Source: Candidatus Bathyarchaeota archaeon (GTDB lineage: Archaea; Thermoproteota; Bathyarchaeia; Bathyarchaeales; Bathycorpusculaceae). Taken from it: a DNA stretch of 64,000 nt. The stretch is taken from NCBI GenBank assembly GCA_963782525.1, contig CAWAKC010000003.1:1-64000 (forward strand), written 5' to 3'. Below the pieces are notes generated by a model, which worked only from the letters and a program-made list of their open reading frames with translations, ran no database searches and was not told the origin of the DNA. Position numbers and translations under genes: made by a program. Of this stretch, positions 34,453-55,952 are shown one piece after another (position 1 is the stretch's first letter; each line of letters starts with the position of its first letter).

Positions 34453-36975
34453 TTATTTGCGTTTTTTTATTAGGACAACGACCAAAAATAGTACCGCTAA
34501 CATAATCAAAATCATGACTGCTTCCAGATTTTCAGGAATTGCTGAAGGGTTAGTATATGGTAAACTTGTGGGGGTTGGAGAAGAGGGTGGTGAAGATGGA
34601 GCTGAAAATGGGGAAATGGTCGTTGCAGGTGAGAGAGTTGGGTTTGTGGGTTCGGGTGATGGAGACGGCGTGGGGGTTTGTGTGGGAGTTGGAGAAGAGA
34701 TTGATGTTGGCGTTTGGGTTGCTGTAGGTTGTAGCGCTTCAAGAGTCAACGTGTAATTGAATGTTGATGTTAAACCTGCATTGTTCATGAATTGGACAAA
34801 CACTGTTTTTTGGCCATCTCCGCCTTGTAGAGTCCACGTTTTCGATGATGAATATGGCTCCCAATTTGACCAGGATGAGTTATCGTTTGAGAACCGCATT
34901 TGTGCAATTCCTGTGGTGGCATCGGTTGCTGATAAAGTCAGCGTAATTATTGGAGTTTCAGTGACTGAAGGTGTTGTTATGTTTCCTGTTGGGGGAGTCT
35001 TGTCTATCTGAATTCCTGTTATGGTCACGTGTGGAAGTTCATTGAGACCTGACCCGTAAATGTTCCATGTACACCAGTATTCGAGCGTGTTATTGCTGCC
35101 CTCTGTTGTTATCGTTGGTTCCCCGTTAGCTGTAACATTGAAAATTGGTCCCCCATTTATACTGTAAAAGGTTTCATTCACAGCAAAGTCAGGAGTAAGG
35201 TTTATGGTAATGTCGGATGCGTGCCATCCGTTCACGTAATCGTTGGCAACCGTTGGCAAGCGGGTCAAATTAACGCAGAAATTACTGTTTCCATCGTTTA
35301 TTGTAATTGTGTGTTGACCTGCAGTTGTAGTAGGCACAATGAAGGTTGTGTTGAAAAACCCGTTGTTGTCGGTGGGTATTATCCCCAAGTTAGTTGTGTT
35401 GTCCCATAACAGTGAAACGCTGCCAGGATCGAACCATTCACCAGAAAAAAGTAGAGCATCGCCGTTTTGGACAAATACGCTGGTTGCCAAATTAGTGCTG
35501 TTTCCGAATAGTCCTTGCGCAGTTACGTTTCCTACCAGCGATAGGCCGCGTCTCCATTCCGCAAATGGAACAACGGTATTGTAAGTGCGACCATTGCTGT
35601 TATCTTGAACTCTGAAAACAATGTTGTCGAAGGCTGCCTGGTGATCGCCTGCAGTGTTGTTTTGGGCTAAATCCGGTGCGTTCATGCTGTAAGTAAAGTT
35701 TTCGGATGTAAGATTGTAGTTGTTGATTATAGGGGTCCAGCCGTTGGTTACTGGGTTTAGGTACGAAATGTTTACTGAGCCCCCAGAAGTGAAGCCGACT
35801 CCGTTGAGAATTATTGCCCCGTTAGGTGGACCGGAAGAGGGAAACACATCAAGAGAGGTCCCAAACCTATACGTAAGAGGGCTACCAAGCCCTGTTACCA
35901 AATCGTAGCCTTGGTTTGCAGAGTTAACTTTGTTGGATCCTTGGGTTATATCTCGGAAGTAAGTTTGATAGGATGAGTTTGCTTTACTATAAAGGTTAAT
36001 GTTTGTGGCGGATTGTCCGAGCGCTTGAATGGCTGCCCACTGAGGTGCCCCAGCGCTTGTGCCGCCAACAATCCACCATGTGCCGTTATAAACTGAGACA
36101 CCTGTTGAAGGGTTTGCGTTATAAGAGACATCGGGAACTACCCGATTTGGATAGTTTAATCCAAAGTTTGTTTGATAATTAGGCCTGGCAATGTAGTGAC
36201 TCACTCCTCCACTACTGCCAACCCAAGCAGTTTCAGAAGATACTGAGCCGTTTGGGTAAAAATATAGCGATGTTCCTCCTACACTAACAACGTTCGCTGA
36301 AGAAGCCGGCCACATTACACTTGAGCCATCATCACCTGATGAAGCGAAAAAGGTGATGCCGGGTTTGTTGAAATGACTTTCATAGAAGGTTTGGAATGAT
36401 GATTCGTTTCCTCCCCAACTCATCGAAACTGCAACTACGCCTGGCTGACTTGCCGCGTAATCAACAGCTGATAGAAGCGCAAAATTGGACGCGGAAGTAG
36501 CTTCAACTAGAAGTATCATTGCGTTGGGAGCTATGGCATGAGCCCATTCTACATCTAAACAAGTTTCCAATGACCAACCATTATCGACTTGTAAATTTGG
36601 AGCCATCTTATGGACAAAAAAGTTGCTTGTCGAGTTGTCTGGAAGCCCATATTGACTTGAAAAAGTGTTGTAGTAATCTAGTATGTTTGGCGTGTCAAAT
36701 GCGTCAACTATGGCGATTGTAGTGTTGGCGCCTCCTGATGAGGGCAAGTTATAAGCTGATCTCATCTGTTCAGGCGAATATCCATGCGGACTAGATGAAC
36801 CTGCAAATGGAGAAATATACATGGGGTGAGCCACCCAATCGTTCTGATCTTTTTGTGTAGCCAAAAAGGCTCCAGATGGAACAAAGTAAGCAATCATAAA
36901 CATTGAACATGTAACGAATACTAGAATTCGAGCTACTTGTATTCGATTCACTTTAGCTGGTTTCCCTTTTTTCAT
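34453..36975 (-). CDS. Surface-anchored S53 (sedolisin) peptidase
   Basis: ETCLDVE (E-x3-D), SSGDDG, GGTSAGAP, GYDLVTGLGSP; Ig-like domains, PT linker, IPE + TM + KKRK tail. Confidence 0.85.
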   Translation of the reverse strand: MKKGKPAKVNRIQVARILVFVTCSMFMIAYFVPSGAFLATQKDQNDWVAHPMYISPFAGSSSPHGYSPEQMRSAYNLPSSGGANTTIAIVDAFDTPNILDYYNTFSSQYGLPDNSTSNFFVHKMAPNLQVDNGWSLETCLDVEWAHAIAPNAMILLVEATSASNFALLSAVDYAASQPGVVAVSMSWGGNESSFQTFYESHFNKPGITFFASSGDDGSSVMWPASSANVVSVGGTSLYFYPNGSVSSETAWVGSSGGVSHYIARPNYQTNFGLNYPNRVVPDVSYNANPSTGVSVYNGTWWIVGGTSAGAPQWAAIQALGQSATNINLYSKANSSYQTYFRDITQGSNKVNSANQGYDLVTGLGSPLTYRFGTSLDVFPSSGPPNGAIILNGVGFTSGGSVNISYLNPVTNGWTPIINNYNLTSENFTYSMNAPDLAQNNTAGDHQAAFDNIVFRVQDNSNGRTYNTVVPFAEWRRGLSLVGNVTAQGLFGNSTNLATSVFVQNGDALLFSGEWFDPGSVSLLWDNTTNLGIIPTDNNGFFNTTFIVPTTTAGQHTITINDGNSNFCVNLTRLPTVANDYVNGWHASDITINLTPDFAVNETFYSINGGPIFNVTANGEPTITTEGSNNTLEYWCTWNIYGSGLNELPHVTITGIQIDKTPPTGNITTPSVTETPIITLTLSATDATTGIAQMRFSNDNSSWSNWEPYSSSKTWTLQGGDGQKTVFVQFMNNAGLTSTFNYTLTLEALQPTATQTPTSISSPTPTQTPTPSPSPEPTNPTLSPATTISPFSAPSSPPSSPTPTSLPYTNPSAIPENLEAVMILIMLAVLFLVVVLIKKRK

Positions 36976-38581: not shown

Positions 38582-39022
38582 TTAACTTAGAGCTCTAGCT
38601 CTTGATTCTATAAATTCTGCGACTTTCTTCTCACCAAAAGTCTTTTCTTGTTTTTGCAATGATAGTTGTTCTCGAATGGTATCTAAGAGTTTTTCGATGT
38701 CTACGGGTTTGATGAGATAAGCATCTGCTTTCTGGTTTAGAGCTAAAATGGCGTTTTGCTGTGAAGGGAAACCAGTTACCATTATCTTCCGGATCTTAGG
38801 AACTGTATCACGCATTTTGGACAGCAGTTCTATACCTTCCATATCTGGAAGCTTGATGTCTAGTAACGCAACGTTGTAGGTGGAATCTTGTGTTTTTCTA
38901 ATAGCCTCACGTCCACTTGCCGCCAAATCGACCTCAAAGCCTTCATCGAGAAGTATGGCAAGAACAGTTTTTCGGATGTTCTCATCGTCGTCAACAACTA
39001 AAATTCTAACTGGATTATCCAA
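38582..39022 (-). CDS. Response regulator (receiver domain + short helical tail)
   Basis: ILVVDDD, LLDIKLPD, MVTG, YLIKP. Confidence 0.92.
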   Translation of the reverse strand: MDNPVRILVVDDDENIRKTVLAILLDEGFEVDLAASGREAIRKTQDSTYNVALLDIKLPDMEGIELLSKMRDTVPKIRKIMVTGFPSQQNAILALNQKADAYLIKPVDIEKLLDTIREQLSLQKQEKTFGEKKVAEFIESRARALS

Positions 39023-40952
39023 TCTTATTCACCTCCCGTACAAAATCTTGATTAATTGGCAATGTAACCTTGAAAGTTGTTCCTTCACCTAACTTACTTG
39101 TAACCTTGATTTTTCCGCAATGTGCTTCAACCAACCGTTTGCAAATCGCCAATCCAAATCCCATACCTTGCGCTTTTGTTGTAACTAATGGTGTGAAGAG
39201 TTTTGCTTTGGTTTCTTCAGAAATACCTACACCTGAGTCGATAAAAGAAAATTCCACGAAGGACTCAGTTTGTAGGCTTTTTATTTCCAAGGTTCCTTTT
39301 TCTGGAATTGCATCAATTCCATTTTTGATAAGATTCATAAAAACTCTTTTGATTGAACCTACATCAGCTCTGAATGAAGGTGTGCTTTGTGTATTATCGA
39401 CAATTATTATACGATTTGGGACTTCAAGCGTAGACAAGGCGTCCAACAAGGCTGCTTTAGGGGTGGTCTCCGAAATTTCTAACTTTATGTTCTTTGAATA
39501 ATCTAGGAGATCGCCGATGATCTTGTTTGCATGTTCAATTGATGACTCGATTATGCTAAACATTTCATTTTTAGATTCGCTGGGGCAATCGGCTTCTTTC
39601 TTTTTCAAATAATAAACAGCGTTTTTTATTCCAGAAAGTGGGTTCCGAAGATCATGTCCTACCATTCCAGCCATTTCGCCTATGGCGGCAAGTCTTTCAG
39701 TCTTGACAAGTTGGTTTTGGGCTTCTTTAAGTTCGCCTGTTCTCATAGCAACCGTTTCTTCTAAGCTTTTGGAATAATCTTGAAGCTTCTGTTGAATTTG
39801 TTTTTTCTCGGTGACATCGCGGACAATACTTACCCCAAAAAATGTCCCATTCATTTGAAGTTGCGCATAAGAGATTTCTACAGGGAATGCTGTACCATCT
39901 TTTTTGATGGCGGTTCTTTCAATAATTCTAGTAGATTCAGTCTTGGGTTGATTCTCGATGAACTCTTTCATCATAGGCATTACCGCAGACACATTCTCTT
40001 GAGGTAGTAGGCAGGAAATGGGTTTGCCAATTATTTGGTTGTGAGTGTATCCGAATAGTCTTTGGGCAGCCGGGTTCCAAAAGGATACGTTAAGTTTATT
40101 ATCTATTACAATTATGGCATCCATTGCAGCCTCCATCGTTGCTCGGAATCTTTCTTCACTCTCACTCAAAGTCTGTTCCATTTTCTTACGTTCTGTTATG
40201 GGAACCGCAAGTTCTAAGGCGGCAATAATTCGACCGGTCTTATCTTTTATTGGAGTTGCTGTCAACTCTATCCAAATCAGGTCATTTTCGTTTCTTCTTT
40301 GACAGTATTCGTGGGAATCAGTTTCAACCCCATCTTCAAAAACTTTCCGAACGCCACAATCGCTGCAAAGCGTGTTAGAATGGTTAAAAACGGAAAAGCA
40401 ATACTCGTTTTCCAAGCGGTATTTTGAATTGAGAGTTTTATTGGCCCACAAAACATGGTAATCTCGGCTAATAAGTATGAGACCTGCGTCCAAGTTTTCA
40501 GTCACAGCCTCAAGCATATCTCTTTCCTGTCGGAGTGCGTCCTCGATTTGCTTGCTTTCGGTGATGTCTCTGAAAATACCTTGGACAAGTCTTTTACCAT
40601 TTATCTCGAACACGCTGGATTTAATTGAAACATCTCGAAGATTTCCTTCCTTGGTTATGATTTGGGTTTGCCGAACGCTACTGCCTATGTTTTGGCTGAG
40701 CCTTTTGAAGGCTTTGTTTACTCCTGCTTCGTTTTCTTTTTCGGGATACAGAATTCCATTGTGTTTGCCAATTATTTCTTGACGTGGTCTATTTACCAGT
40801 TGTTGTGCTTTTTTGTTGCAATCGATTATTTTTCCGGTTTTAGCTTCACTTACAAAAATAGCCTCAACTGCTTCTTCGAATAGTGTTTTGTATTTTTCTC
40901 CCGGTTCAATAAGTGCATCAGGTATAGACTTTCTTTTGTTCTGTATCAGCAA
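39015..40952 (-). CDS. Triple-PAS sensor histidine kinase
   Basis: Three PAS/PAC units, GHDLRNPL, NLIKNG, DSGVG, GMGFGL. Confidence 0.92.
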   Translation of the reverse strand: MLIQNKRKSIPDALIEPGEKYKTLFEEAVEAIFVSEAKTGKIIDCNKKAQQLVNRPRQEIIGKHNGILYPEKENEAGVNKAFKRLSQNIGSSVRQTQIITKEGNLRDVSIKSSVFEINGKRLVQGIFRDITESKQIEDALRQERDMLEAVTENLDAGLILISRDYHVLWANKTLNSKYRLENEYCFSVFNHSNTLCSDCGVRKVFEDGVETDSHEYCQRRNENDLIWIELTATPIKDKTGRIIAALELAVPITERKKMEQTLSESEERFRATMEAAMDAIIVIDNKLNVSFWNPAAQRLFGYTHNQIIGKPISCLLPQENVSAVMPMMKEFIENQPKTESTRIIERTAIKKDGTAFPVEISYAQLQMNGTFFGVSIVRDVTEKKQIQQKLQDYSKSLEETVAMRTGELKEAQNQLVKTERLAAIGEMAGMVGHDLRNPLSGIKNAVYYLKKKEADCPSESKNEMFSIIESSIEHANKIIGDLLDYSKNIKLEISETTPKAALLDALSTLEVPNRIIIVDNTQSTPSFRADVGSIKRVFMNLIKNGIDAIPEKGTLEIKSLQTESFVEFSFIDSGVGISEETKAKLFTPLVTTKAQGMGFGLAICKRLVEAHCGKIKVTSKLGEGTTFKVTLPINQDFVREVNKIG

Positions 40953-41328
40953 ATAAGACCCCCATTTTGCAGATTTCTCCAGCTTTTTGAATACTTTGCC
41001 TTTTCAACCTAACATAGGACTCGAATGTTAATTCAGGAACTATCCAATCAGGTTCATTCCACTCATGTATTGTTTTAGTTTTTGTTTGAAGTTTTTTCAT
41101 AAAACTTATTTCGAGAAGCTTGGCCCCCTCGCCAAGAAGTTTTCCGAGCGCATCTGAAAAGCCAGAAAGATTATCAGGAATTTTTTTTCTACTAATTCCA
41201 AAGTCCTTCCATAGATGAAAATAGATTTCATCCTTTGGAGTTTCACCTAAAAAAGAAAGAACTTCATCAATCGTTTCAAGTACAATGGCATCTAAATCTT
41301 GACTTGTTTCAGCTTTTTTTTGTTTCAA
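40918..41328 (-). CDS. DUF3227/NitrOD5-like small helical signalling protein
   Basis: LETIDEVLSFLGE...IYFHL...IPDNL..FSDAL.KLLGEGA; overlaps the kinase start. Confidence 0.6.
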   Translation of the reverse strand: MKQKKAETSQDLDAIVLETIDEVLSFLGETPKDEIYFHLWKDFGISRKKIPDNLSGFSDALGKLLGEGAKLLEISFMKKLQTKTKTIHEWNEPDWIVPELTFESYVRLKRQSIQKAGEICKMGVLFADTEQKKVYT

Positions 41329-43132: not shown

Positions 43133-46100
43133 ATGAAAGGGCGACGGCTATTGAGTGATAATGACGAGAACATCAGAACATTAATTAATCTTGGGCTCAC
43201 AGGGGCACAGGCGAAAATTTTCCTTTCTCTACTCAGAATTGGACAAGCGTCAACAAAGGAAATTGCACAAGTTTCCAAAGTTGCTCGCCCAGACACCTAC
43301 AGAGAACTTACAGAATTGCAAGACATGGGAATTGTTAAAAAAATTGTATCAATCCCAATCAAGTTTACTTCTTTGTCCATTGAAGATGCCATTGAAATTT
43401 TGATGGCGCGGAGAAATCAAGAAACCTTAGACTTGAACAAAAAAACAACTGAGTTAATTGAAAGATTCAAAAAATTAAATTGTGAACCACAAGTAAATGA
43501 CGACAAACTCATTTTAATTCCAGAAGAAGCATTAGACCTTGAATTGCGAAAACTGCTTGAAAAAGCGGAAGACAGCGTTTGTATTATGGTTTCTAGCCAA
43601 AAAATGTATGGTTGGGCTTGTGAAAGCTTCGAACTAATTGAGGAAGCTTTGAAAAGAAAAGTTTCGTTTCGGGTTGTAACTGAAAAGCTTCCAAAACCAG
43701 CATCTTCAAAAGAAATAAATGCGCTAAACAAAAACCCAAATTTTGAAATCAGACATATTTCTGCCCCTCTTGGTGCTTGGTTTACGATATACGACGGCAA
43801 AATAGTTGTACTTGCAATCGGTCCAGATTCCGCAGTTAGGTCAAATAATAAAATCTTAATAGAATTAGCAAAAGACTATTTTGACTCCACATGGTCCTCA
43901 GCGATAGAACCAATAGACCAAATCTTCAAAAAAGATAGCCAACAATTTGATAAACTTTTTGCAAACATGATTAACGGTTTCGCCTACTGTCAAATGATAT
44001 TTGACAAAGAAGGAAAGCCTTCAGATTTTATTTATCTCCAAGTGAACGATGCTTTCTCAAAAATAACTGGATTTGAAAAAAATGAAATAATTGGTAAAAA
44101 GGTCTCTCAAGCAATACCTGGAATAAAAGAAGCTAACCCCGAACTTTTCGAAATTTACGGTCGAGTATCTCTCAGTAGGAAGAGCGAAGAGGTTGAAACT
44201 TTTTTCAAACCTTTGAACATTTGGTTATTTATTTCTGTTTACAGTCCTAAAAGAGGCTATTTTGCCGCCTTATTTGAAGATATTTCGGAATATAAGAAAA
44301 CCGAACAGAAGTTAAAGGAAAGCGAGTTAAAATACCGCAACATTTTCAACAATTCGGCAGCCGGAATGTTTAGGACTGTCTTGGACGGTTCTAAAATCCT
44401 TGACTGCAACGCCCATTTCCTTGCGATTTTTGGTAGGTCCTACGATGAAGTCGTAGGTAGACCATCAATTATTCATTGGTTTGATCCGAGTGATAGGCAA
44501 GAAATGGTTCGCTTACTTCAAGCCAAGGGACAAATTGAAGATTTTGAATGTCGGATGTTAACCAAACAAGGTGAAATTAAAACATGTCTGACATCCTTGA
44601 AGCTCGACTCTGAACAGAAAATATTAGAAGGCTCAATAATCGACATTTCCGAACGCAAACGAGTAGAAAATGCTCTGAAGGAAAATCAATATTTTGTTGA
44701 AAAAATTCTTAACACCACACCCACCCTTATCTACATTTATGACCTCATAGAGCACCGCAATGTTTACGCTAATCAAGAAATAGTTGAATTTTTGGGTTAT
44801 GAACCTGAGCAAATCGAAATGATGGGGCCAAACTTGTTTTCCACTATATTGCATCCTGACGATTTCGATCTTGTGACTAATCATCATTCAAAAATCCGCA
44901 ACGCCTCAGGAAATGACCAGTTTGAGGTTGAATATCGCATGAAACATGCCGATGAAAGTTGGCATTGGTTGCATAGCATAGACGTTCCTTTTAGTTTCAA
45001 TCAGGAAGGCACAGTTAAGCAGATTTTAGGATCGGCTGAAGACATAACAGAGCGCAAGAATAATGAATTGGAATTGAAGCGGTTAAATGAGGTTCTTGAG
45101 CGGGTGGGGCAAAGTGTTGATGCGGGGTTGGCTGTTATTGGTAAGGATTATCATGTCATTTGGGCCAATCAACGTCTAAAAGATTTGGGTGTTGCTCCAA
45201 ACAAAAAATGTTACCAAATCTTCAACAAATCCCATTCAGTTTGTATTAATTGTGGTGTAAAAAAAATTTTTGAACAAAACCGACCATTTGATGTTCATGA
45301 ATTCAAGACAATTAACTCAAAGGGTGAAACAACATGGATAGAATTAAGAGTAACTCCCTTGAAAGACAAAAACGGTGCTACCATGGCTGCTCTTGAGCTT
45401 GCAGTTCCAATCACCGAACGCAAAAAAACTGAAGAGGACTTGCAGAAAAGCCTAAAAAGAGAACGTTTTCTGGCAAATCTCATAAGAAATGCTTCGATTG
45501 CGATCGCCGTTGCATATCCTGGTGGTAGATTGATGATGATTAATGAGGCGTTTCAGCGACTCACCGGCTACAAAGAGAACGAATTGAAAAATCTTACTTG
45601 GAATGTAGATCTAACTCCAATAGAATGGCGCGAATACGAGACGAAAAAATTGGGGGAAATTATTCAATCTAAGAAATCTGGCGTTTATGAGAAAGAGTAC
45701 ATTCGAAAGGATGGGTCTATAGTTTCAGTCGAAATTGTTGTCCACCCATTCTTTGATGAAAATGAAAACATCTCTTATTATTTTGGGTTTATAACTGATA
45801 TTACAGAACGCAAAAAAGCTGAACATGAACTTTTGGAGCAGAAAGAAAAAGCCGAGCGTTATCTCAATGTTATTAGGCATGTTGTTCTGGCATTGGACCT
45901 TAAAGGAAATATTACTCTGCTCAATAAGAGAGGGTGTGAAATTCTCGGTTACGAAGAAGGAGAGCTAGATGGAAAAAATTGGGTTGAGAATTGTCTTCCA
46001 ATGGATGTAAGAGAAGAGTTAAGAATGGTTCATGAAAATTTTGTTCACATAGCGAATGGGCTTCCCGAATACTACGAGAATGCTATTTTAACAAAAAAGG

Positions 46101-46573
46101 GCGAGAGAAAAATAATTAGATGGTATAATACGGTTGTGACCGACGAGAGTGGACGAATTATTGGCTCATTGAGTTCAGGAGAGGATATTACTGAAAGGAA
46201 GAAAGCTAATGAGGCGCTGGAAACGAGCGAGAAGAAGTTCCGCTCTCTTTTTGAGAATTCTCTTGACGGATTGATAATTGCTAAGCGAGATGGGAGAATA
46301 CTTTGGGCGAATACTGCAATTTGTGAAATGCTGGGCATGACTAAAAAAGAAGTCTTGGCGGCTGGTCGCCAAGGAATAGTAGTTAATGACAAAAGAAATA
46401 TTGCTGCACTCAAAGAACATGATGCCAAAGACAAAGTTGTAGCTCAATTAGCTTTTAAACGCAACGACAAGTCTGTTTTTGAAGCTGAAATTTCAAGCAG
46501 AAACTTCGAAGATGTCGATGGGTCAACAAGCATTTTTCTTACAATCCGCGATCTCAAAAACAGATTTCGCTAA
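43133..46573 (+). CDS. TrmB-family HTH + TrmB effector domain + 7 PAS domains (no kinase domain)
   Basis: LGLT..QAKIF..LL..G.....EIA..SKVARPDTYR; seven PAS/PAC units ending in DI.ERK-like motifs; no H, N or G boxes. Confidence 0.88.
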   Translation: MKGRRLLSDNDENIRTLINLGLTGAQAKIFLSLLRIGQASTKEIAQVSKVARPDTYRELTELQDMGIVKKIVSIPIKFTSLSIEDAIEILMARRNQETLDLNKKTTELIERFKKLNCEPQVNDDKLILIPEEALDLELRKLLEKAEDSVCIMVSSQKMYGWACESFELIEEALKRKVSFRVVTEKLPKPASSKEINALNKNPNFEIRHISAPLGAWFTIYDGKIVVLAIGPDSAVRSNNKILIELAKDYFDSTWSSAIEPIDQIFKKDSQQFDKLFANMINGFAYCQMIFDKEGKPSDFIYLQVNDAFSKITGFEKNEIIGKKVSQAIPGIKEANPELFEIYGRVSLSRKSEEVETFFKPLNIWLFISVYSPKRGYFAALFEDISEYKKTEQKLKESELKYRNIFNNSAAGMFRTVLDGSKILDCNAHFLAIFGRSYDEVVGRPSIIHWFDPSDRQEMVRLLQAKGQIEDFECRMLTKQGEIKTCLTSLKLDSEQKILEGSIIDISERKRVENALKENQYFVEKILNTTPTLIYIYDLIEHRNVYANQEIVEFLGYEPEQIEMMGPNLFSTILHPDDFDLVTNHHSKIRNASGNDQFEVEYRMKHADESWHWLHSIDVPFSFNQEGTVKQILGSAEDITERKNNELELKRLNEVLERVGQSVDAGLAVIGKDYHVIWANQRLKDLGVAPNKKCYQIFNKSHSVCINCGVKKIFEQNRPFDVHEFKTINSKGETTWIELRVTPLKDKNGATMAALELAVPITERKKTEEDLQKSLKRERFLANLIRNASIAIAVAYPGGRLMMINEAFQRLTGYKENELKNLTWNVDLTPIEWREYETKKLGEIIQSKKSGVYEKEYIRKDGSIVSVEIVVHPFFDENENISYYFGFITDITERKKAEHELLEQKEKAERYLNVIRHVVLALDLKGNITLLNKRGCEILGYEEGELDGKNWVENCLPMDVREELRMVHENFVHIANGLPEYYENAILTKKGERKIIRWYNTVVTDESGRIIGSLSSGEDITERKKANEALETSEKKFRSLFENSLDGLIIAKRDGRILWANTAICEMLGMTKKEVLAAGRQGIVVNDKRNIAALKEHDAKDKVVAQLAFKRNDKSVFEAEISSRNFEDVDGSTSIFLTIRDLKNRFR

Positions 46574-47170: not shown

Positions 47171-47671
47171 ATGAACATATTAAACACTATAAAAAAATCG
47201 ACGCCGCTAAAGATAATTATTCCAATCCTAATAATCTCAATAGTCTCCATCGCTTCTTTCGCAGCAAGTGTAGCAGTTAATTCCTCAACTTCTCAGACTG
47301 TCCAAGGTGTCATGTACACAGTAACTGGAGGTTTTACAGCAGCCAGCAACGGATTTGTGGTCACTCAAAGTGCAGCTACCGCAACAACACTACCAGCCAC
47401 ATGGACAAGTAACGGCACCGTGACGACTTCAACTTTTGCAGGAAATTGGCAATACTCTTTAACAGTTACATTAAACGCAGCAGCATCAACAAGCACAACC
47501 TACACAGTAAGCGTACAATGGAACACTGGAACTGGATACGCAGCACTAGGCGCTCCACTTACCTTTACAACACCAGCCACAATAACTGCTGGGCAAACGA
47601 TGACATTCGTCTTAAACACCGGCGTAACCACCTTCAACGCACCAGCAGGTATCCTAATTACAATCGCTTAG
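47171..47671 (+). CDS. Secreted beta-rich putative major fibre subunit (TasA-like/bundling-pilin-like)
   Basis: 31-aa signal peptide (..SFA|A); the 135-aa mature part has no D/E/K/R/H/C, is 34% Ser+Thr and has no anchor; same operon as a SipW-type peptidase. Confidence 0.6.
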   Translation: MNILNTIKKSTPLKIIIPILIISIVSIASFAASVAVNSSTSQTVQGVMYTVTGGFTAASNGFVVTQSAATATTLPATWTSNGTVTTSTFAGNWQYSLTVTLNAAASTSTTYTVSVQWNTGTGYAALGAPLTFTTPATITAGQTMTFVLNTGVTTFNAPAGILITIA

Positions 47672-47713
47672 GCGGCACCAACTTTGTTCAACTGGAAACG
47701 AGTCTACAAAAAA

Positions 47714-48952
47714 ATGGCTCGGATTCCTTTTTTTAATAACTTAAAAGCCCCCGGGCTCCTCATTTTCGGGTTGATCGCTCTAATTATATTTTCAATCGGA
47801 ATGATTTCGCTTTCCGCAGCTCCAGTCAACATAACTTCTTCAAGCAGTCAAGCGAAACTCGGAATCTTTATGCTGAGCTATTTTGAAAACGCAAATGCAC
47901 CCTCAAGCGGAACCTCAGTGACAGTAAATACTCAAACATCCATACCTACATCATCAGGATCTTATTTAATTCCACGCGGAACATCCGTTTACATCTGGAC
48001 AACCCAATTTGCATCTTCAATCACAGTTCCTTCAGGAAAAATGATCCTTGATTTATGGGCGGGGTCGACGACGCCTGCTCCCAGTTTGGATGGGCAAGCA
48101 TCAGCAAGCACCAATGGAGCCTCTGGATCAGTTTCCCTCACCACCACTCAAACAAGCGATCTAATTTACGTAGTCGTTTCAACATCCTCCACTCCAAGCG
48201 TGTCAATTTCTGGAGCAGGATTATCATGGAACTTAAGAGGGTCCATAGTTAACGGGAGAACTGGTGCGGTTTGGACTTTTTATTCAATTTCTCCTAGCAC
48301 TCTATCTTCAGCAACAATTACAGCAACTTTAGATTCAAAACAAAAATTCGTGATTTTAGCATTCGCTGTAAGTGGAGTAAACACTTCCGCACCATTTGAT
48401 CCAAATCTTGGAACTGTGGCAATGTCTACAGGTAGCTATTCACAGCCTTCAGTCTCGTTTACAACTAACTTTGCAAATGACTTTCTGATAGGCGCATTAT
48501 ATCTAAATAACAACCCTACGGTTACCCCCAGCCTGGGTTTTTCGACCATTGCGGTGTCTAATTTCGCTAATCAGGTAACAGGCGTCGCAGAAAGCGAAAA
48601 CTCGGAATCCGCAGGAGTTCAAATTGCAGCTTTTTCACTCAGTTCAAGCAATTCGTGGGCAATAATCGGCGATGCTCTGGTTCCATCAACCGTAGGATCA
48701 ACACTTTCAGTGTCGGCTTATACAACCGCATCTTCTGGGGCAAATTCAAACACTCTATTCAGTAGTTTCAACACAAATACGCTTTCCCCTAATGGTGGGC
48801 AAGTGGCAACAGTGTTTCCAGTAACCTCCGGCGTCATACCTGCTCAGGGATATGTAAAGATTATATTAACTGCTCCATCCACTTCTGACATTGTTATTCA
48901 ATGGGGAGCCGGAAAACCAACTAATGTACAAATTGCTTTAACGTATGGATAG
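47714..48952 (+). CDS. Secreted Ser/Thr-rich putative minor fibre subunit/adhesin
   Basis: Signal peptide ..SLSA|APVNITSSSSQ matches the major subunit N-terminus; beta-rich with no TM anchor; ATG 47714 or TTG 47684. Confidence 0.55.
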   Translation: MARIPFFNNLKAPGLLIFGLIALIIFSIGMISLSAAPVNITSSSSQAKLGIFMLSYFENANAPSSGTSVTVNTQTSIPTSSGSYLIPRGTSVYIWTTQFASSITVPSGKMILDLWAGSTTPAPSLDGQASASTNGASGSVSLTTTQTSDLIYVVVSTSSTPSVSISGAGLSWNLRGSIVNGRTGAVWTFYSISPSTLSSATITATLDSKQKFVILAFAVSGVNTSAPFDPNLGTVAMSTGSYSQPSVSFTTNFANDFLIGALYLNNNPTVTPSLGFSTIAVSNFANQVTGVAESENSESAGVQIAAFSLSSSNSWAIIGDALVPSTVGSTLSVSAYTTASSGANSNTLFSSFNTNTLSPNGGQVATVFPVTSGVIPAQGYVKIILTAPSTSDIVIQWGAGKPTNVQIALTYG

Positions 48953-50204
48953 AGCTACGATGAAGTTTACTAAGAAAAAACTGGAATTGTTGCTGTTGGT
49001 GGTCGTTGGCTTAATTATAATTTTGCTTCCAGTTTATGCAAGAACGGGGTCTTATCCGTTAGTTATAGTTGATGGAAATAGTATGTATCCTACCCTGCAA
49101 AACGGAGATGTTGTCTACTATCATGCTGCAACTAACAATGCAAACATTCCTAACGGAACCATAATAGTGTTTGTTCAAGGTGAGACCGGAATATCAATAC
49201 TAGATGGGATGGTTCGACCTGTTGTAATACATAGAATCGTTGGTCAGATTACCCAAAGTGACGGACAGGTTTGTTACACGACTAAAGGCGATAATAATAA
49301 TGTTAATGACCCTTTTCTTACGAGATCTGATCACGTTCTCGGGGCTGGTGGTCTAAATATTCCTAAAATTGGTTTATTGGTCCTTTTTTTGAAGTCCCCC
49401 CAAGGGTTGATAGCCACAATCGGAATTATTTGTTTATCTTACCTAAGCATATATGACATTAAGCGAAGAAAGGACAAGAACAAGGACAAGCTATTAGGAG
49501 CGTTAGCTAAAAAAACCCTCAACGGATACTTATCTGAGCAGCAATTCAAGAAATTGGAATTAGCAGTAAAATATTCTGATGAAATTGAAACTTCAAGTCT
49601 TAGGGATCGAAGTGTTTTTGCTTTAGTTGACTGGTTTAAGAATGGCACTAATGAAACAGATTGGAAAATGCGAATGGTGGCTTGCCCTAAATGCTTCCAT
49701 ATTGCAGTTGGACTTGAGGGGCATGAAGATTCAGTAACTATTTGTTCGAACTGCAACGATGTAAAGACCTGGAATACAACGTTGGTTTTGAATGAAAAGA
49801 ACCTTAATCGCTTATTGTTAGAGTCAATTGATGAAGCTTTGTCAGTTATAGGTAACGAAGCTAAAGCTTCATTATTTCATATACTTGAACACCAATTTCT
49901 CCTTAAAAGAGAGGAAATCCCCAAAAGAATAGATGACTTTTCAGTGGCAATGCAAAAGATATTCGGGAATGGATCTGTGAATATAGATTTACTTCTTGCA
50001 AAAACATTTAAGAAGAATCTGTTTTTGATTTGTAGGGTGGACCCTGAAAGTTTTCCTTTTCAAGAATTTGTAAAACAGATTAGGAATAATATAGACAAAA
50101 TGGGCAATGAAAAAGAGATAAGTAAAATGCTACCTGGCAAGGTTGTGGAAGTTCCCTGCGTTTTATGCAAGGAAAAACAAGATGAAAAAATAGTGGAAGA
50201 CTAA
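48945..50204 (+). CDS. sipW: SipW/Sec11-type (S26B) signal peptidase fused to a Zn ribbon and a DUF3227-like domain
   Basis: TM, GNSMYP (Ser), VIHRIV (His), TKGDNN..ND, second TM, CPKC-x16-CSNC, LLESIDEALSVIG...IPKRIDDFS.AMQKIFG. Confidence 0.85.
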   Translation: MDRATMKFTKKKLELLLLVVVGLIIILLPVYARTGSYPLVIVDGNSMYPTLQNGDVVYYHAATNNANIPNGTIIVFVQGETGISILDGMVRPVVIHRIVGQITQSDGQVCYTTKGDNNNVNDPFLTRSDHVLGAGGLNIPKIGLLVLFLKSPQGLIATIGIICLSYLSIYDIKRRKDKNKDKLLGALAKKTLNGYLSEQQFKKLELAVKYSDEIETSSLRDRSVFALVDWFKNGTNETDWKMRMVACPKCFHIAVGLEGHEDSVTICSNCNDVKTWNTTLVLNEKNLNRLLLESIDEALSVIGNEAKASLFHILEHQFLLKREEIPKRIDDFSVAMQKIFGNGSVNIDLLLAKTFKKNLFLICRVDPESFPFQEFVKQIRNNIDKMGNEKEISKMLPGKVVEVPCVLCKEKQDEKIVED

Positions 50205-50366: not shown

Positions 50367-53108
50367 TTAAGACTTCAGTTCTGAGGTATTCTCAGTATTT
50401 TGGCAACAATTTTCAATTCCTTTTTTGTTTACTTTAGGTATTATTATTTCGAATTTTGCGCCCTCAGAACTGCCTGTTTCCTGAATTTTCCAACCGTAAA
50501 TATCCAGCATTCTTTTAATGAAAAAAAGACCTAACCCTGTGCTGCCCCCCGTGCTATAGCCTTCTTTGAAAAGGAAAGGTTTATCTTTCAAAGAGATGCC
50601 CACACCATTGTCTTCGTAGATTAATGTTATATTTTCGTCATAGTTTTTATTATAACTGATTTTAACTTCTGAGGCTTTTTGCCCGTATTTGCGTGTATTA
50701 TCTAAAAGATTATAGAAGAGTTGTACTAAAAATGAATCTGCCAATAAGCATAATCCATGGCATCTATTGATTATTCTGAAGCTTTGATTGCTGGAAAATA
50801 ATTTAATCGCATCGTCGACCGCTACACCTGCATCGATTGGGCTTAGACTTTCTAGTCCTAGTTGCTCGTACATTTTAGCAAAATTGAAAATTCTATTTAT
50901 ATTTTGGATAGCCCGGTCTATTTGATCTAAAGCCTCAACTATTACTGGCTGCTCTTTATGCTTTTTTCTTAGGATGTAAGAGTAACCTGCTATTCCGCTT
51001 AGTTTGTTGCGAACATCGTGTCTAGTTAATCCGCCGACCACTCTTAGCTTCTCATTAAGCAATTCGGAGTTTTCAATTGTGCAACTTAATGCTTCAAGTG
51101 CTATTGTTAAATCGCGCTGAGTTTGTTTCAATTCAGAAATGTTGGTAACAACACTAACTGCACCAGAATATTTGCCTTTTTCATCGAAAAGCGGGGAATG
51201 ATTTACGATTACTGGAACTGGAACACCTTCTTTATTGATAACTTTCGCTTCAGTATCCCAGCTCACTCCAGACTTTAACCTTTTTATGACAGTTTTTGGG
51301 TTAGCATTTTCTTCGGCGCCCGTTATTTCAATTATGTCCTTACCTGCAACTTCTGTTTCGGTCCAGCCATAGAGATTTTCAGCACCTTTATTCCAGAAAC
51401 GAATTTTTCGATTTTCATCAACCATGATTACGGATTGACCAACACTGTTTAAAAGGTTCACTTGGAACGCTACCCTTCTCTCGTTCTCTTTGCGCTCGAC
51501 AACTCTTCCTAAACGCTCTGCGACAGCATCAATTAAAAATCTTTCTTCCTTCAGAAATGGTCCATCAAAATAGATTATATCTTTCTTTTCAAGATAGTAA
51601 ACTTCAATGCAACCAACATTTTTTTCAAAAGATGAAATATTGGCTTGATATCTCCAAGAACTTTGTTGGAAATTATGAGTCAGATATTGTTGATTTTCAA
51701 ACGTAATCTTGGAGCATGCACTCTCTGGGTACTGCAAAGTTTTGGGAAGTAATTCGTTGGTTCTCTTCATTACATCTTCTAATGAAGTGTTTGGCTTTTC
51801 AATCATTAGTGAAATATCGTAAAGACAACTAAGCGCTTTATTGGCCTGCTGATACCTCTGCAAAAGCTGCTCGAACTCCAATTCCGCTTTTTTATGCTCG
51901 GTTATTGGTACTGCAAGTTCGAGTACAGATGTGATCTTGCCTTCTGAATCTTTTAGAGGGGTGGCTCTAATTTCAACCCAGTTCTTTTTACCCTCTGAAT
52001 TAATGGTCATGTATTCATGGGTGTCTAAAGGAATATTTTCTTCAAAAACTTTTTTGACACCACAACCCGGACAAACTTCGTTTAATTTAGCAATCGTATT
52101 AAAACATTTTTGATTAGGAATAGCTCCTGCATTTGCCAGGACTTTATTGCACCAAATAATATCGTAGTTTTTGTCAATTATTGCTAGTCCAGCGTCGATG
52201 TTTTCTCCGACACTTTCAAGAAGCTGGAACTTTTCGGTGAGCTTTAATGCCGCGTTCTTCTCTTTCGTTATGTCTTGGCATGTTCCCAAAATTTGTTTAC
52301 CCGTCCCTCGAGCAGTTCTACTAAATAATATGTCATAGCTCCGGAACCAATGCCATTCTCCATCGGCATGTCTTATCCGATATTCCACTTCAAAAACCTC
52401 GTTCTCTAAGGCGTTCGTAAACCGGGCATAATGAGCGGTTATTATTTTAACATCTTCTGGGTGCAAAAGACTTATGAACGATTCAGAACCCATTTCTGAA
52501 ATCTGCTCTGGAGAATAACCGAGAAATTTAGCTGCTTCCTTGTTCGAATAAATATATTTATTTTCAAATAAATCATAGATGTAGACTATATTTGGTGTCG
52601 AATCGATTATTTTATGAGTAAAAAGTCGTGCTTCAGCTAATTTCTTTTTTGACTCAGTTTTCTCAATAGAATTTTCTATAACGTGTTCAAGTTCGCCATA
52701 AACCGTTTCTGGGTTGCCTTGTTTGTTTACGTAGCCGTCTGCGCCTAGATTCAATGCTTTGACAGCAAGTTCTTCTCGACCTTTTCCAGTAAACAAAACA
52801 AAAGCAATATCGTTTTTTTGCTCTCTAAGGTTGAGAAGTAAATCCAGTCCATTTTTAATAGGCATTTCATAATCAGAAATTACGGCGACATAATTACCTG
52901 TGGATAGTTTATTTAATGCTTCATCTACGTTTGATGCACAATCAATTAGGTATTCGCCATCTGATTCTAAAATTGTCTTTGTAAGATTTAGAAAACAAAG
53001 GTCATCGTCAACATATAATATGTTCTTTTTACATATTGGTTGTTCTTTTTCTGCCCCAATTTTAAATGTAATAAGGTTGTTTTCATTGGAATTACAATTC
53101 ATCTGCAA
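50367..53108 (-). CDS. Hybrid kinase REC-PAS-PAS-GAF-like-PAS-HisKA-HATPase
   Basis: ILYVDDD, SDYEMP, FTGKGREE; RHDVRNKL; NLLDN; DNGVG; GLGL. Confidence 0.9.
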   Translation of the reverse strand: MQMNCNSNENNLITFKIGAEKEQPICKKNILYVDDDLCFLNLTKTILESDGEYLIDCASNVDEALNKLSTGNYVAVISDYEMPIKNGLDLLLNLREQKNDIAFVLFTGKGREELAVKALNLGADGYVNKQGNPETVYGELEHVIENSIEKTESKKKLAEARLFTHKIIDSTPNIVYIYDLFENKYIYSNKEAAKFLGYSPEQISEMGSESFISLLHPEDVKIITAHYARFTNALENEVFEVEYRIRHADGEWHWFRSYDILFSRTARGTGKQILGTCQDITKEKNAALKLTEKFQLLESVGENIDAGLAIIDKNYDIIWCNKVLANAGAIPNQKCFNTIAKLNEVCPGCGVKKVFEENIPLDTHEYMTINSEGKKNWVEIRATPLKDSEGKITSVLELAVPITEHKKAELEFEQLLQRYQQANKALSCLYDISLMIEKPNTSLEDVMKRTNELLPKTLQYPESACSKITFENQQYLTHNFQQSSWRYQANISSFEKNVGCIEVYYLEKKDIIYFDGPFLKEERFLIDAVAERLGRVVERKENERRVAFQVNLLNSVGQSVIMVDENRKIRFWNKGAENLYGWTETEVAGKDIIEITGAEENANPKTVIKRLKSGVSWDTEAKVINKEGVPVPVIVNHSPLFDEKGKYSGAVSVVTNISELKQTQRDLTIALEALSCTIENSELLNEKLRVVGGLTRHDVRNKLSGIAGYSYILRKKHKEQPVIVEALDQIDRAIQNINRIFNFAKMYEQLGLESLSPIDAGVAVDDAIKLFSSNQSFRIINRCHGLCLLADSFLVQLFYNLLDNTRKYGQKASEVKISYNKNYDENITLIYEDNGVGISLKDKPFLFKEGYSTGGSTGLGLFFIKRMLDIYGWKIQETGSSEGAKFEIIIPKVNKKGIENCCQNTENTSELKS

Positions 53109-53483: not shown

Positions 53484-53870
53484 ATGGATACGTTAAAACG
53501 AATACCATTCGAAGAAGTATTAGCAGCATCTCATATTCTATGGACAAGTAAATCATTGGCTGATCAGATCGCTTTAGACTCACTTGAAATTATTAACAAG
53601 TCATATAGGCGGAAATTTTCGTTCTTTAGTGGAAGAAGGTCAACATGGATTGTTGGAGGCTTACTGTATCTTTTAAGCTACAGATACGATTCAGTCAAAA
53701 AACAAAAAGAACTAGCAGACGTTTTAGGTACAACAGATGGAACAATTAGGGATTCTTATAGACTCTGGCTTAAAACATTCCCGGATCTGTTTATGGATGT
53801 AATCGGCAAGTTTGCTAACGACGAAAAGCTTCGTTACTTTGTCCGAATAGATTTAATAAAAGAAGCATGA
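53484..53870 (+). CDS. Single cyclin-repeat TFB/TFIIB-like protein
   Basis: SGRR....GGLLYL...QKELADVLGTTDGTIRDSY resembles the second TFB cyclin repeat and its HTH. Confidence 0.6.
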   Translation: MDTLKRIPFEEVLAASHILWTSKSLADQIALDSLEIINKSYRRKFSFFSGRRSTWIVGGLLYLLSYRYDSVKKQKELADVLGTTDGTIRDSYRLWLKTFPDLFMDVIGKFANDEKLRYFVRIDLIKEA

Positions 53871-54262: not shown

Positions 54263-54339
54263 GCGGTAATAGTACAGCTTGGTCAGTACATAGGCTTGCC
54301 AAGTCTAGGACCCGGGTTCAAATCCCGGTTACCGCACCA
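54263..54339 (+). tRNA. tRNA-Gly(GCC) with encoded CCA
   Basis: Acceptor GCGGTAA/TTACCGC, anticodon arm TAGGC-TTGCCAA-GTCTA, T arm CCGGG-TTCAAAT-CCCGG. Confidence 0.95.
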
Positions 54340-54929: not shown

Positions 54930-55952
54930 TAGGGGTGTGCAGAATTTAAGCTGCTTCCCAATTATGTTCTAGTATGGAAGCCTGTGAAGTTGTCAGGCTT
55001 TTCGTCAACAAAGCAATCGTTTCTGTAGAACCCAAAAGACGCGGAAATCCAGGCTACGGACGCCTAAGAGCACTAAGAGTTCTCGTTTATGCCAGACTGA
55101 AAGGATTAGAGAACGACACACGTGTAATTGAACATCTAAAGAAGCATACGGACGTTGCTAGAACACTTGGCTTATTCAAAGTACCCAATAGAACCACTGT
55201 TGGAAGATGGTGGAGACGCTATCTTGACGTTCTTGAAGAAACTTTTAAGAAGATATCGGCTATGCTTCAACTAGTGACACCGACCACTATTCTAATTGTT
55301 GACTCAACGCCGTTAGTGGATCTCTACGATATGGAAGCGGGCTGGGGTCACACGAGCCGTGGAAAATTCAGAGGTTTCAAGCTTCATGCAGCGGTAAATC
55401 AGCTGGGGTTGCCGTTGAGAGCAGTTGTTACGCCTGGTAATCGTTATGACTCGCCTTTTCTTCCCGGTCTCATTGAGGATTTGGAAGCAGAATACGTTTT
55501 GGCCGATGCGGGTTATGACTCGAAAACAAACAAAAGAGCAGCCAAGGGCATTGAAGCTGAGCCTGTTATTGCTCCTAATCCTAGAAGGGGAAAACGCAAA
55601 AGAATCAAACATGCTAGACTCTTGGAGACTAAGCGTTATGTGGTTGAGCAGTTTAATGGGCATCTTAAAGCTAACGTTTTGAGGAATTGCTGGGTGAGGC
55701 CTAAGGGTTTGGTGAAGAAGGCGGCTATGGTGATGGCTGGCTTGATTAGTTATGATGCTGAAGCAATACGATCGCTTATTGTTGGCGAGCAAAGTCTAAA
55801 AACGGTAAGCAAGTACTGGGCTTGACCCAACAACAAATGATCATGGAGCCCTCAAAGACACCAAATCAATGGTATTTACGGGTACGATCCCAGACTTGCT
55901 CAAAGATAACTTACCTATCGGAACTATAAAAAATGAATTGCGCACACGTCTA
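54930..55952 (+). mobile_element. IS5-like element, 1023 bp
   Basis: Imperfect IRs TAGGGGTGTGCAGAATT / AATTGCGCACACGTCTA; 7-bp TSD ATTTATT at 54923-54929 and 55953-55959. Confidence 0.9.
54974..55825 (+). CDS. DDE transposase (IS4/IS5-type)
   Basis: IVDSTP, GFKLH, LADAGYD, RYVVEQFNGHLK. Confidence 0.9.
   Translation: MEACEVVRLFVNKAIVSVEPKRRGNPGYGRLRALRVLVYARLKGLENDTRVIEHLKKHTDVARTLGLFKVPNRTTVGRWWRRYLDVLEETFKKISAMLQLVTPTTILIVDSTPLVDLYDMEAGWGHTSRGKFRGFKLHAAVNQLGLPLRAVVTPGNRYDSPFLPGLIEDLEAEYVLADAGYDSKTNKRAAKGIEAEPVIAPNPRRGKRKRIKHARLLETKRYVVEQFNGHLKANVLRNCWVRPKGLVKKAAMVMAGLISYDAEAIRSLIVGEQSLKTVSKYWA

Follow-up and report, generated by a model that had tools for sequence, protein, structure and literature searches.

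Most archaeal response regulators lack a DNA-binding output, and little is known of what they act on. In the part of Galperin et al. 2018 (PMC5847659) that was accessible to us, archaeal receivers are thought to work mainly by protein-protein contacts, and NitrOD5 (PF11537) is described as a thaumarchaeal response-regulator output domain, which occurs fused to a receiver domain (REC-NitrOD5) and as multi-copy stand-alone proteins, and is placed in an archaeal family termed "Death domain-like", citing Makarova et al. 2017. Another described system is the signal peptidase SipW, for which the accessible part of PMC8767453 gives a catalytic triad of Ser/His/Asp (Ser47, His87, Asp106). A further relative to be considered is PH0832 of Pyrococcus horikoshii (PDB 2p9x), an uncharacterised structural-genomics protein, for which no function was found in the literature searched. 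In the present study, a stretch of 64,000 nucleotides (nt) from Candidatus Bathyarchaeota archaeon (contig CAWAKC010000003.1, positions 1 to 64,000, herein called the window) was analysed around the gene at 48945-50204 on the forward strand. The product of this gene is predicted to join a signal peptidase I to a long cytoplasmic tail, which would consist of a helical module, a zinc ribbon and a further helical domain (herein called DOM) related to NitrOD5. Genes for stand-alone copies of this domain are, by their neighbourhoods, regular partners of one receiver subfamily, and we hypothesize that such a receiver might act on the peptidase through its tail.

First, the catalytic part belongs to a known family. 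The open reading frame (ORF) at 48945-50204 (+) encodes 419 amino acids (aa), begins with ATG and shares 8 nt with the end of the upstream ORF 47684-48952. By profile match, its product is an archaeal/endoplasmic reticulum (ER)-type signal peptidase I (TIGR02228, MEROPS S26B), and cleavage is predicted; the TIGR02228 model for archaeal signal peptidase I scored 88.1 bits compared with a cut-off of 51.85, and residues 11-169 aligned with model positions 2-153 of 158. The profile scans proposed in the first-pass annotation, which had been made from the letters of the DNA and its ORFs, supported the signal peptidase through this model (the Pfam families S24 and S26 reached 20 and 19.8 bits with the 419-aa protein, both below cut-off) and gave no match to PF11537. 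Because the SipW equivalog model (NF046067) scored 55.1 bits, below its cut-off of 190, the window peptidase is no SipW orthologue. All 18 aligned homologues, 12 of which are full-length, keep the residues S46 (GNSM), H96 (VIHR) and D116/D122 (GDNN..ND), and by motif position S46, H96 and D116/D122 would be the equivalents of Ser47, His87 and Asp106 in SipW. Two hydrophobic spans were observed in the hydropathy profile (residues ~13-33 and ~140-170), with five K/R in residues 1-14 and seven in residues 171-185. The predicted topology comprises an N-in first transmembrane span (TM1), an external catalytic domain and a C-terminal second span (TM2), and the tail is predicted to be cytoplasmic, as initially supposed, because the catalytic domain is necessarily external and a single hydrophobic span lies behind it. 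A second, ordinary archaeal signal peptidase with a tail of 18 residues is encoded on contig 1 of the same genome. In the source records, related proteins are annotated as plain "signal peptidase I".

Second, about 249 residues follow TM2 in the window peptidase. This long tail, which the first-pass annotation had singled out, is intact in one more genome (locus L013) and in several metagenome contig groups. In an AF2 model of the tail (mean pLDDT 85.6), obtained with a 122-row alignment, three helices lead into a ribbon of four strands, behind which a five-helix domain is predicted. The motif CPKC-x16-CSNC had been read correctly, and its four cysteines (C247, C250, C267 and C270) are invariant in 18 of 18 homologues; in a wider set of 39 sequences, three ribbon cysteines are invariant and the fourth is kept in at least 90%. 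The CxxC pair on four strands is, as modelled, a zinc ribbon, for which metal binding is predicted, and the Pfam family Zn_Ribbon_TF gave weak matches in nine of 122 family members. The final CVLC (C405, C408) reported at the same time is present but not conserved, as it was observed in two of 12 full-length sequences, namely the window peptidase and P0001, which are 93% identical overall. Modelled alone (pLDDT 81.4), the helix and zinc-ribbon module showed no recognisable known fold (Foldseek best E 0.26, VIA-align best Z 3.9), which is not proof of a new fold. Two candidate identities were rejected. A SHOCT reading of the helices after TM2 found no hmmscan match at E<=1 and no place among the 25 families shown for 122 tails, and a TFB-like reading (zinc ribbon plus helical repeat) met weak Zn_Ribbon_TF matches only, with no cyclin/TFIIB chain among the 50 structural matches listed.

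The fused architecture was then traced among relatives. With the tail as query, 17 proteins were retrieved at E<=0.001 among 1118 candidates; 11 of these, 403-438 aa long, cover 84-100% of the tail, and six, 283-297 aa long, cover about half of it. The 11 full-length homologues, which answer the search for this architecture proposed earlier, have overall identities of 58-93% and retain the conserved DOM positions. Contig scans yielded 74 loci, 13 from genomes and 61 from metagenomes, the hosts of which are labelled as Nitrososphaerales, Nitrososphaerota or "Bathyarchaeia" metagenome-assembled genomes. A peptidase with the helix and zinc-ribbon tail was found in 59 of these loci, and DOM was found in 11, which form eight groups at 95% identity (L013, L038-L040, L042-L045, L049 and L051, together with a broken copy in L041). 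On this distribution, the helix and zinc-ribbon module is a widespread, ancestral tail of the peptidase lineage, and DOM is an add-on specific to a sub-clade. In L041 (3323-3660), an in-frame TAG after "..EALSS" is followed by recognisable DOM sequence and then by a frameshift; in L048, scrambled DOM remnants follow a short-form peptidase gene downstream of 6870; and L014 carries the "..EALSS" vestige only, without DOM. The broken copies in L041 and L048 point to recent domain loss or to assembly errors. In L075 (1824-2930), the helices after TM2 are kept, and a different C-terminal domain of ~130 residues replaces the zinc ribbon. Raw reads from four DNA runs of one study, which held 6-14% of the sampled words, were assembled into pieces of 151-239 nt that are mostly identical to the window, and no piece of this length spans the whole TM2-tail junction region; no RNA run containing the sequence was listed.

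Third, the domain at the end of the tail belongs to a large family of small proteins. As claimed in the first-pass annotation, the tail domain and the stand-alone protein encoded at 40918-41328 (-) are homologous by BLASTP, with 35/117 identities (30%), 50.1 bits and E 1e-12 between tail residues 285-395 and the 136-aa ORF. Four DOM copies are present in the source genome, three stand-alone and one in the peptidase tail. When 1.84 billion proteins were searched with a 13-sequence profile, 3248 cluster representatives matched at E<=0.001, of which 1675 also reached E<=1e-10, and nearly all of the 150 DOM-profile matches listed are stand-alone proteins of 100-200 aa. In the predicted model, for which pLDDT is >90 over most of the domain, residues 110-210 of the tail model superpose on PH0832 with Z 11.7 and a root-mean-square deviation of 2.1 A over 97 of 98 residues (22% identity), and the next structure reaches Z 5.4. 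The fold assigned to DOM is, on this model, that of PH0832, with which the results of Foldseek against 2p9x (E 0.0096, TM-score on target 0.81-0.82) and of the DOM sequence profile against the 2p9x sequence (E 4.3e-5) are consistent. The model of DOM has five helices, with 2p9x as its sole clear structural match, and the Death fold is a six-helix bundle.

The relation of DOM to NitrOD5 is borderline. The label "DUF3227/NitrOD5-like", which the tail had been given at first, holds for homologous relatives that reach PF11537 and does not hold for the window copies or their genome: with a model cut-off of 27 bits, no match was obtained even at E<=1, either with the tail, with the 136-aa protein or anywhere in the genome. 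Across the class, 27 of 151 genomes have small ORFs that PF11537 matched at E<=0.01, with four matches above the cut-off, and 29 of 122 DOM-family members touched it at E<=0.05, although eight of those had been picked via PF11537. When phmmer was run against 12 loci with such ORFs, the tail matched nine and the 136-aa protein eight, with up to 60-65 bits. The tail scored 58-60 bits with L029 and L034 (26.3 and 23.3 bits on PF11537) and 24.2 bits with the L027 ORF (27.4 bits on PF11537; E 2.7e-7 in a small database), and it did not match L026, the strongest NitrOD5 ORF. Because PF11537 misses the window copies though their relatives match, DOM is best called a sister family of NitrOD5 and not a member of it, with membership borderline on these scores.

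Fourth, DOM genes keep regular company with two-component genes. In the window, the stand-alone DOM gene overlaps a PAS kinase gene by 35 nt, as had been noticed from the ORF list. The operon of DOM, PAS kinase and REC with overlapping genes occurs twice in the source genome, in the window (38582-41328, -) and on contig 7 (L002 1423-3317), and the third stand-alone DOM gene, on contig 4 (L004 1483-3217), lies directly upstream of a large CheB/CheR-like gene (motifs judged by eye) that runs off the locus. In P0094, DOM is fused to five PAS domains, HisKA and HATPase. The receivers adjoining DOM genes group tightly in a single subfamily (56-70% identity), whose members share a conserved helix at the C-terminus. 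Linkage was defined as a DOM gene and a REC gene on the same strand within 4.5 kb and was counted in 46 genomes of the order, with REC matches taken at E<=1e-35. DOM genes were found in 42 of these genomes, with 143 matches in total, and 40 of the 54 REC-subfamily matches have a linked DOM gene. Sixteen of the 40 pairs are <300 nt apart, and the gaps of 1.2-3.9 kb in the other 24 would fit an intervening kinase, which is confirmed for the source genome only. Among the best 45 REC matches, 39 are linked to a DOM gene, 15 of them within 300 nt, and the six unlinked ones lie on contigs without any DOM match. These neighbourhoods show that stand-alone DOM genes regularly accompany the genes of one receiver subfamily, in the orders DOM-REC, REC-DOM or DOM-kinase-REC. 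Moreover, DOM-(kinase)-REC looks like an apparently undescribed three-part two-component module. The earlier suggestion that one and the same domain sits both beside the kinase-receiver pair and on the peptidase is thereby supported, by homology and by the 39 of 45 best receiver matches that are linked. In one genome of the set (G008, contig 44, 48188-48795), a DOM match and a REC-subfamily match on one strand overlap by 7 nt, and the REC match contains one TGA; the two may represent a DOM-REC fusion or a broken pair.

In addition, a conserved operon has the peptidase gene as its last member. Wherever at least 700 nt of upstream sequence were available (45 loci), homologues of the 166-aa and/or the 422-aa secreted protein (Table 1) are in every case encoded upstream on the same strand; 35 of the loci have both, and in 10 the small one occurs in at least two copies. 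This gene order shows the peptidase to be a second, operon-dedicated enzyme, encoded by the last gene of a conserved three-gene operon. The 166-aa protein has an N-terminal signal peptide ending in ..SFAAS, followed by a T/S-rich mature part of ~135 aa, and the relatives of the 422-aa protein range from 189 to 725 aa. Neither protein matched a Pfam or NCBIfam family, a PDB sequence, TasA/Peptidase_M73 or a pilin; 41 homologues of the 166-aa protein had no Pfam match, including TasA/camelysin (Peptidase_M73); and Atlas returned unnamed archaeal clusters together with a 0.76 lead to DUF1102. The "fibre" whose maturation the first-pass annotation had envisaged is therefore an analogy only, because neither secreted protein has a detectable family, TasA and pilins included, or a solved relative. 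By its occurrence, the operon is rare and patchy. With the window query, it was observed in one of the 46 sampled genomes of the order, which is the source genome itself, and in four of 301 genomes of the class, and the matches in the three others end at query residues 272-290, without DOM.

The surroundings of the operon were compared after grouping the loci at 95% peptidase identity and requiring a flank of at least 1.5 kb on one side. Three of the four DOM-bearing groups (the window, L013/L040/L049 and L042/L043, but not L038) have a REC gene no more than 1 kb from the operon, and none of the 25 groups without DOM does, although L056 among them has one at 3.6 kb; this contrast is suggestive only, because the lineages are few and related. 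In L042/L043, a receiver gene lies 6 nt downstream of the DOM-bearing peptidase gene in convergent orientation, and its product is 56% identical to the window receiver at 38582. In these two loci, neither a stand-alone DOM nor a kinase was matched.

From these results, it is plausible that secretion and signalling are coupled via the DOM tail, and more than one direction and effect may be proposed for this coupling. Herein, we tentatively favour a hypothesis in which a receiver controls the processing of the operon's secreted proteins via the tail, which seems to us possible, though short of probable. First, DOM would be a docking or output partner of the linked receiver subfamily, and the peptidase tail would offer a two-component receiver a docking site that is fixed to the membrane. 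Either this receiver in its phosphorylated form or a complex of DOM and kinase would bind the tail, and binding might alter the activity of the peptidase, its oligomeric state or its placement at the translocon. The helix and zinc-ribbon module might relay this change via TM2 or hold the enzyme in an assembly, and the secreted proteins would mature in step with a cytoplasmic signal from a PAS kinase. In its most specific form, a phosphorylated receiver-only regulator would dock on the tail DOM and switch cleavage of the secreted subunits on or off via the helix/zinc-ribbon module and TM2, which would make the peptidase a two-component effector; taken in all its details, this version is improbable. 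Complex prediction with the tail DOM and REC 38582 gave a score of 0.00, which is uninformative either way.

Several observations weigh against receiver control. Both binding and regulated cleavage are hypothetical. Judged from its near relatives, DOM is dispensable for the peptidase because it decays in sister lineages, being absent (L014) or reduced to decaying remnants (L041 and L048). With no more than 40 of the 143 DOM genes linked to the REC subfamily, the DOM family has other contexts as well. The neighbourhood contrast rests on three related lineages, the REC arrangements of which differ, and the adjacent REC in the window and in L013 belongs by sequence to another subfamily that is not DOM-linked (34% identity). 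The window's own DOM copies, as scanned, miss the Pfam NitrOD5 model. Finally, the operon lies in a kinase-rich stretch of lower G+C, and the proximity of kinases could be partly incidental.

Two other readings are equally likely, both behind receiver control, and we regard each as rather unlikely. In one of them, signalling would run in reverse, as in the bifunctional SipW: the peptidase would be constitutive, and its tail would report on or titrate a signalling component. By holding a DOM-binding receiver at the membrane, in competition with stand-alone DOM proteins, the tail would let export or assembly feed back on two-component output and gene expression. All of the DOM-REC linkage evidence fits this direction equally well, and possible competitors exist in the three stand-alone DOM paralogues of the genome, although any output of the tail is hypothetical, and the loss of DOM in sister lineages argues only that its function is optional. 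The precedent comes from B. subtilis, where, according to the accessible part of PMC8767453 summarising Terra et al. 2012, SipW activates matrix genes through its 20 cytoplasmic residues at the C-terminus, independently of its peptidase activity; however, no homology is expected between this tail and that of the window peptidase.

In the other reading, there is no two-component coupling. The helix and zinc-ribbon module would be a structural device, serving oligomerisation, docking to the Sec translocon or the ribosome, or anchoring in a platform for assembly of the secreted proteins, and DOM would be a promiscuous helical domain that was fused by chance and is now being lost. The module is indeed present in 59 of 74 loci compared with about 11 for DOM, which is decaying in L041 and L048 and absent from L014, and the different C-terminal domain in place of the ribbon in L075 implies that the tail swaps modules. 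In the same direction, 103 of the 143 DOM genes are unlinked to the REC subfamily. Against this reading stand the 11 intact full-length homologues that keep the conserved DOM positions at 58-93% overall identity, the receiver genes near three of four DOM-bearing operon groups and none of 25 others, and the orphan receiver of the DOM-linked subfamily 6 nt from the DOM-bearing peptidase in L042/L043. Lastly, nothing was found in favour of an assembly or frameshift artefact behind the long ORF, or of an extracellular tail, and both are hardly credible given the same uninterrupted architecture in independent contigs (58-93% overall identity) and a single hydrophobic span after the external catalytic domain, followed by seven K/R in 15 residues and a four-Cys ribbon.

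The coordinates of the features discussed are collected in Table 1. The operon lies inside a stretch of lower G+C, which drops from 0.42-0.46 to 0.37-0.40 at ~36 kb (window 36000-64000). This stretch also contains many PAS kinases and regulators, a 128-aa TFIIB-repeat fragment (53484-53870), a tRNA-Gly (54263-54339) and a DDE transposase (54974-55825), and of 14 genomes sampled from the same genus, 13 lack the peptidase operon. The lower G+C, the gene content and the absence of the operon from 13 of 14 congeners suggest that the stretch is an accessory island. At the G+C boundary, an 840-aa ORF (34453-36975, -) matched nothing in Pfam at E<=1e-4. On the strand of the operon, 600 nt upstream (43133-46573, +), lies the gene of a 1146-aa protein in which a TrmB-type helix-turn-helix at the N-terminus is combined with at least five PAS domains; this protein is a candidate for the operon's transcriptional regulator. 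Around the DOM-bearing operon in two other loci (L013 1-3543 and 11771-17062; L049 3530-4159), type IV pilus-like genes were recognised by eye, including an ATPase fragment and polytopic membrane proteins. Pilin-like ORFs with class III-type N-termini, likewise judged by eye from their N-terminal sequences, are also present there, and a KaiC-like ATPase gene, again identified by eye, lies 2.5 kb downstream of the DOM-bearing peptidase.

Table 1. Position, strand and supporting evidence of the features discussed in the window
Feature	Position	Strand	Evidence
Receiver-only response regulator, 146 aa, DOM-linked REC subfamily; 8 nt overlap with kinase gene	38582..39022	-	Pfam Response_reg, 90.5 bits
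PAS histidine kinase, 645 aa; 35 nt overlap with DOM gene	39015..40952	-	ORF
Stand-alone DOM paralogue, 136 aa, first gene of DOM-kinase-receiver operon	40918..41328	-	ORF, BLASTP
Small secreted protein, 166 aa, first operon gene; presumed peptidase substrate	47171..47671	+	Sequence; homologues upstream of related peptidases
Larger secreted S/T-rich protein, 422 aa, N-terminal hydrophobic signal/anchor, second operon gene	47684..48952	+	ORF, homologues
Fused signal peptidase I with predicted cytoplasmic tail, whole gene	48945..50204	+	ORF, TIGR02228, homologues
TM1 (residues ~13-33), preceded by K-rich N-terminus	48981..49043	+	Hydropathy, K/R counts
Predicted extracytoplasmic catalytic domain	49044..49394	+	TIGR02228 match; invariant S46, H96, D116, D122
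TM2 (residues ~154-170), followed by DIKRRKDKNKDK	49404..49454	+	Hydropathy
Predicted three-helix module (residues 177-234), most conserved part of the tail (..LLGALAKK.LNG.LS..QFKKLELAVKYSD..)	49473..49646	+	AF2 models, invariant columns
Predicted four-stranded zinc ribbon (residues 241-276), C247, C250, C267, C270	49665..49772	+	Invariant Cys, AF2 models, weak Zn-ribbon Pfam matches in relatives
DOM, predicted five-helix PH0832-like/NitrOD5-related domain (residues 284-393)	49794..50123	+	BLASTP, profile, AF2, fold match
C-terminal stretch including CVLC, non-conserved, low confidence	50124..50201	+	pLDDT ~50; alignment
Hybrid histidine kinase (REC-PAS-PAS-PAS), 913 aa; convergent with the peptidase gene at a distance of 162 nt	50367..53108	-	ORF, domain scan

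The peptidase family and NitrOD5-like domains are already known. In the literature searched, with the supplements of PMC5847659 (Table S4/S5) and PMC9245690 (SI Data 1) outside the search, no zinc-ribbon-tailed peptidase, DOM-bearing form or DOM-(kinase)-REC module was found. The new result is the tie between DOM genes and one REC subfamily across an order. Even without regulation, the operon of secreted subunits with its dedicated zinc-ribbon peptidase, from soil and peat Nitrososphaeria, and the DOM-(kinase)-REC module are apparently undescribed. If receiver control of the peptidase were true, it would be the first post-translational two-component control of signal-peptide processing, and receiver docking would provide a biochemical function for >3000 clusters of small archaeal proteins, including PH0832. 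Moreover, if the tail DOM docks receivers, a membrane protease would become a concrete target of response regulators, and the function of a large family of small proteins would become testable.

Among the known systems, PH0832 shares its fold with the modelled DOM over its whole 98-residue chain and is itself a stand-alone, euryarchaeal protein. Like NitrOD5, DOM has ~100 residues, is helical, occurs in Nitrososphaeria, and is mostly stand-alone, multi-copy and receiver-associated; the difference is that Table 3 in the accessible part of PMC5847659 gives NitrOD5 and REC-NitrOD5 as architectures, with no peptidase or DOM-PAS-kinase fusion. The AbpA/AbpB bundling-pilus genes of Pyrobaculum calidifontis resemble the window operon in that the gene of a small secreted beta-rich subunit is followed by that of a ~410-aa secreted protein, with processing by signal peptidase I, but the accessible part of PMC9245690 reports no dedicated peptidase near the ABP operon. 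No sequence similarity of the window secreted proteins to AbpA or TasA was detected. The organisation of the operon also resembles that of tapA-sipW-tasA, except that the upstream proteins of the window have no TasA/Peptidase_M73 match. The likeness to SipW, as described in the accessible part of PMC8767453, extends to the peptidase itself: both are Ser-His-Asp peptidases of the ER/archaeal type that have a C-terminal TM, and each is encoded in one operon together with its secreted substrates, which in the window are presumed ones, with a housekeeping paralogue elsewhere. In the same source, the cytoplasmic tail of SipW has a signalling role separate from catalysis, and the window peptidase also has a cytoplasmic tail by prediction. 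The SipW tail has ~20 residues, whereas that of the window peptidase has ~250 residues, predicted to fold into three modules. If its DOM docks receivers, the window peptidase would be to archaea what the bifunctional SipW is to Bacillus biofilms.

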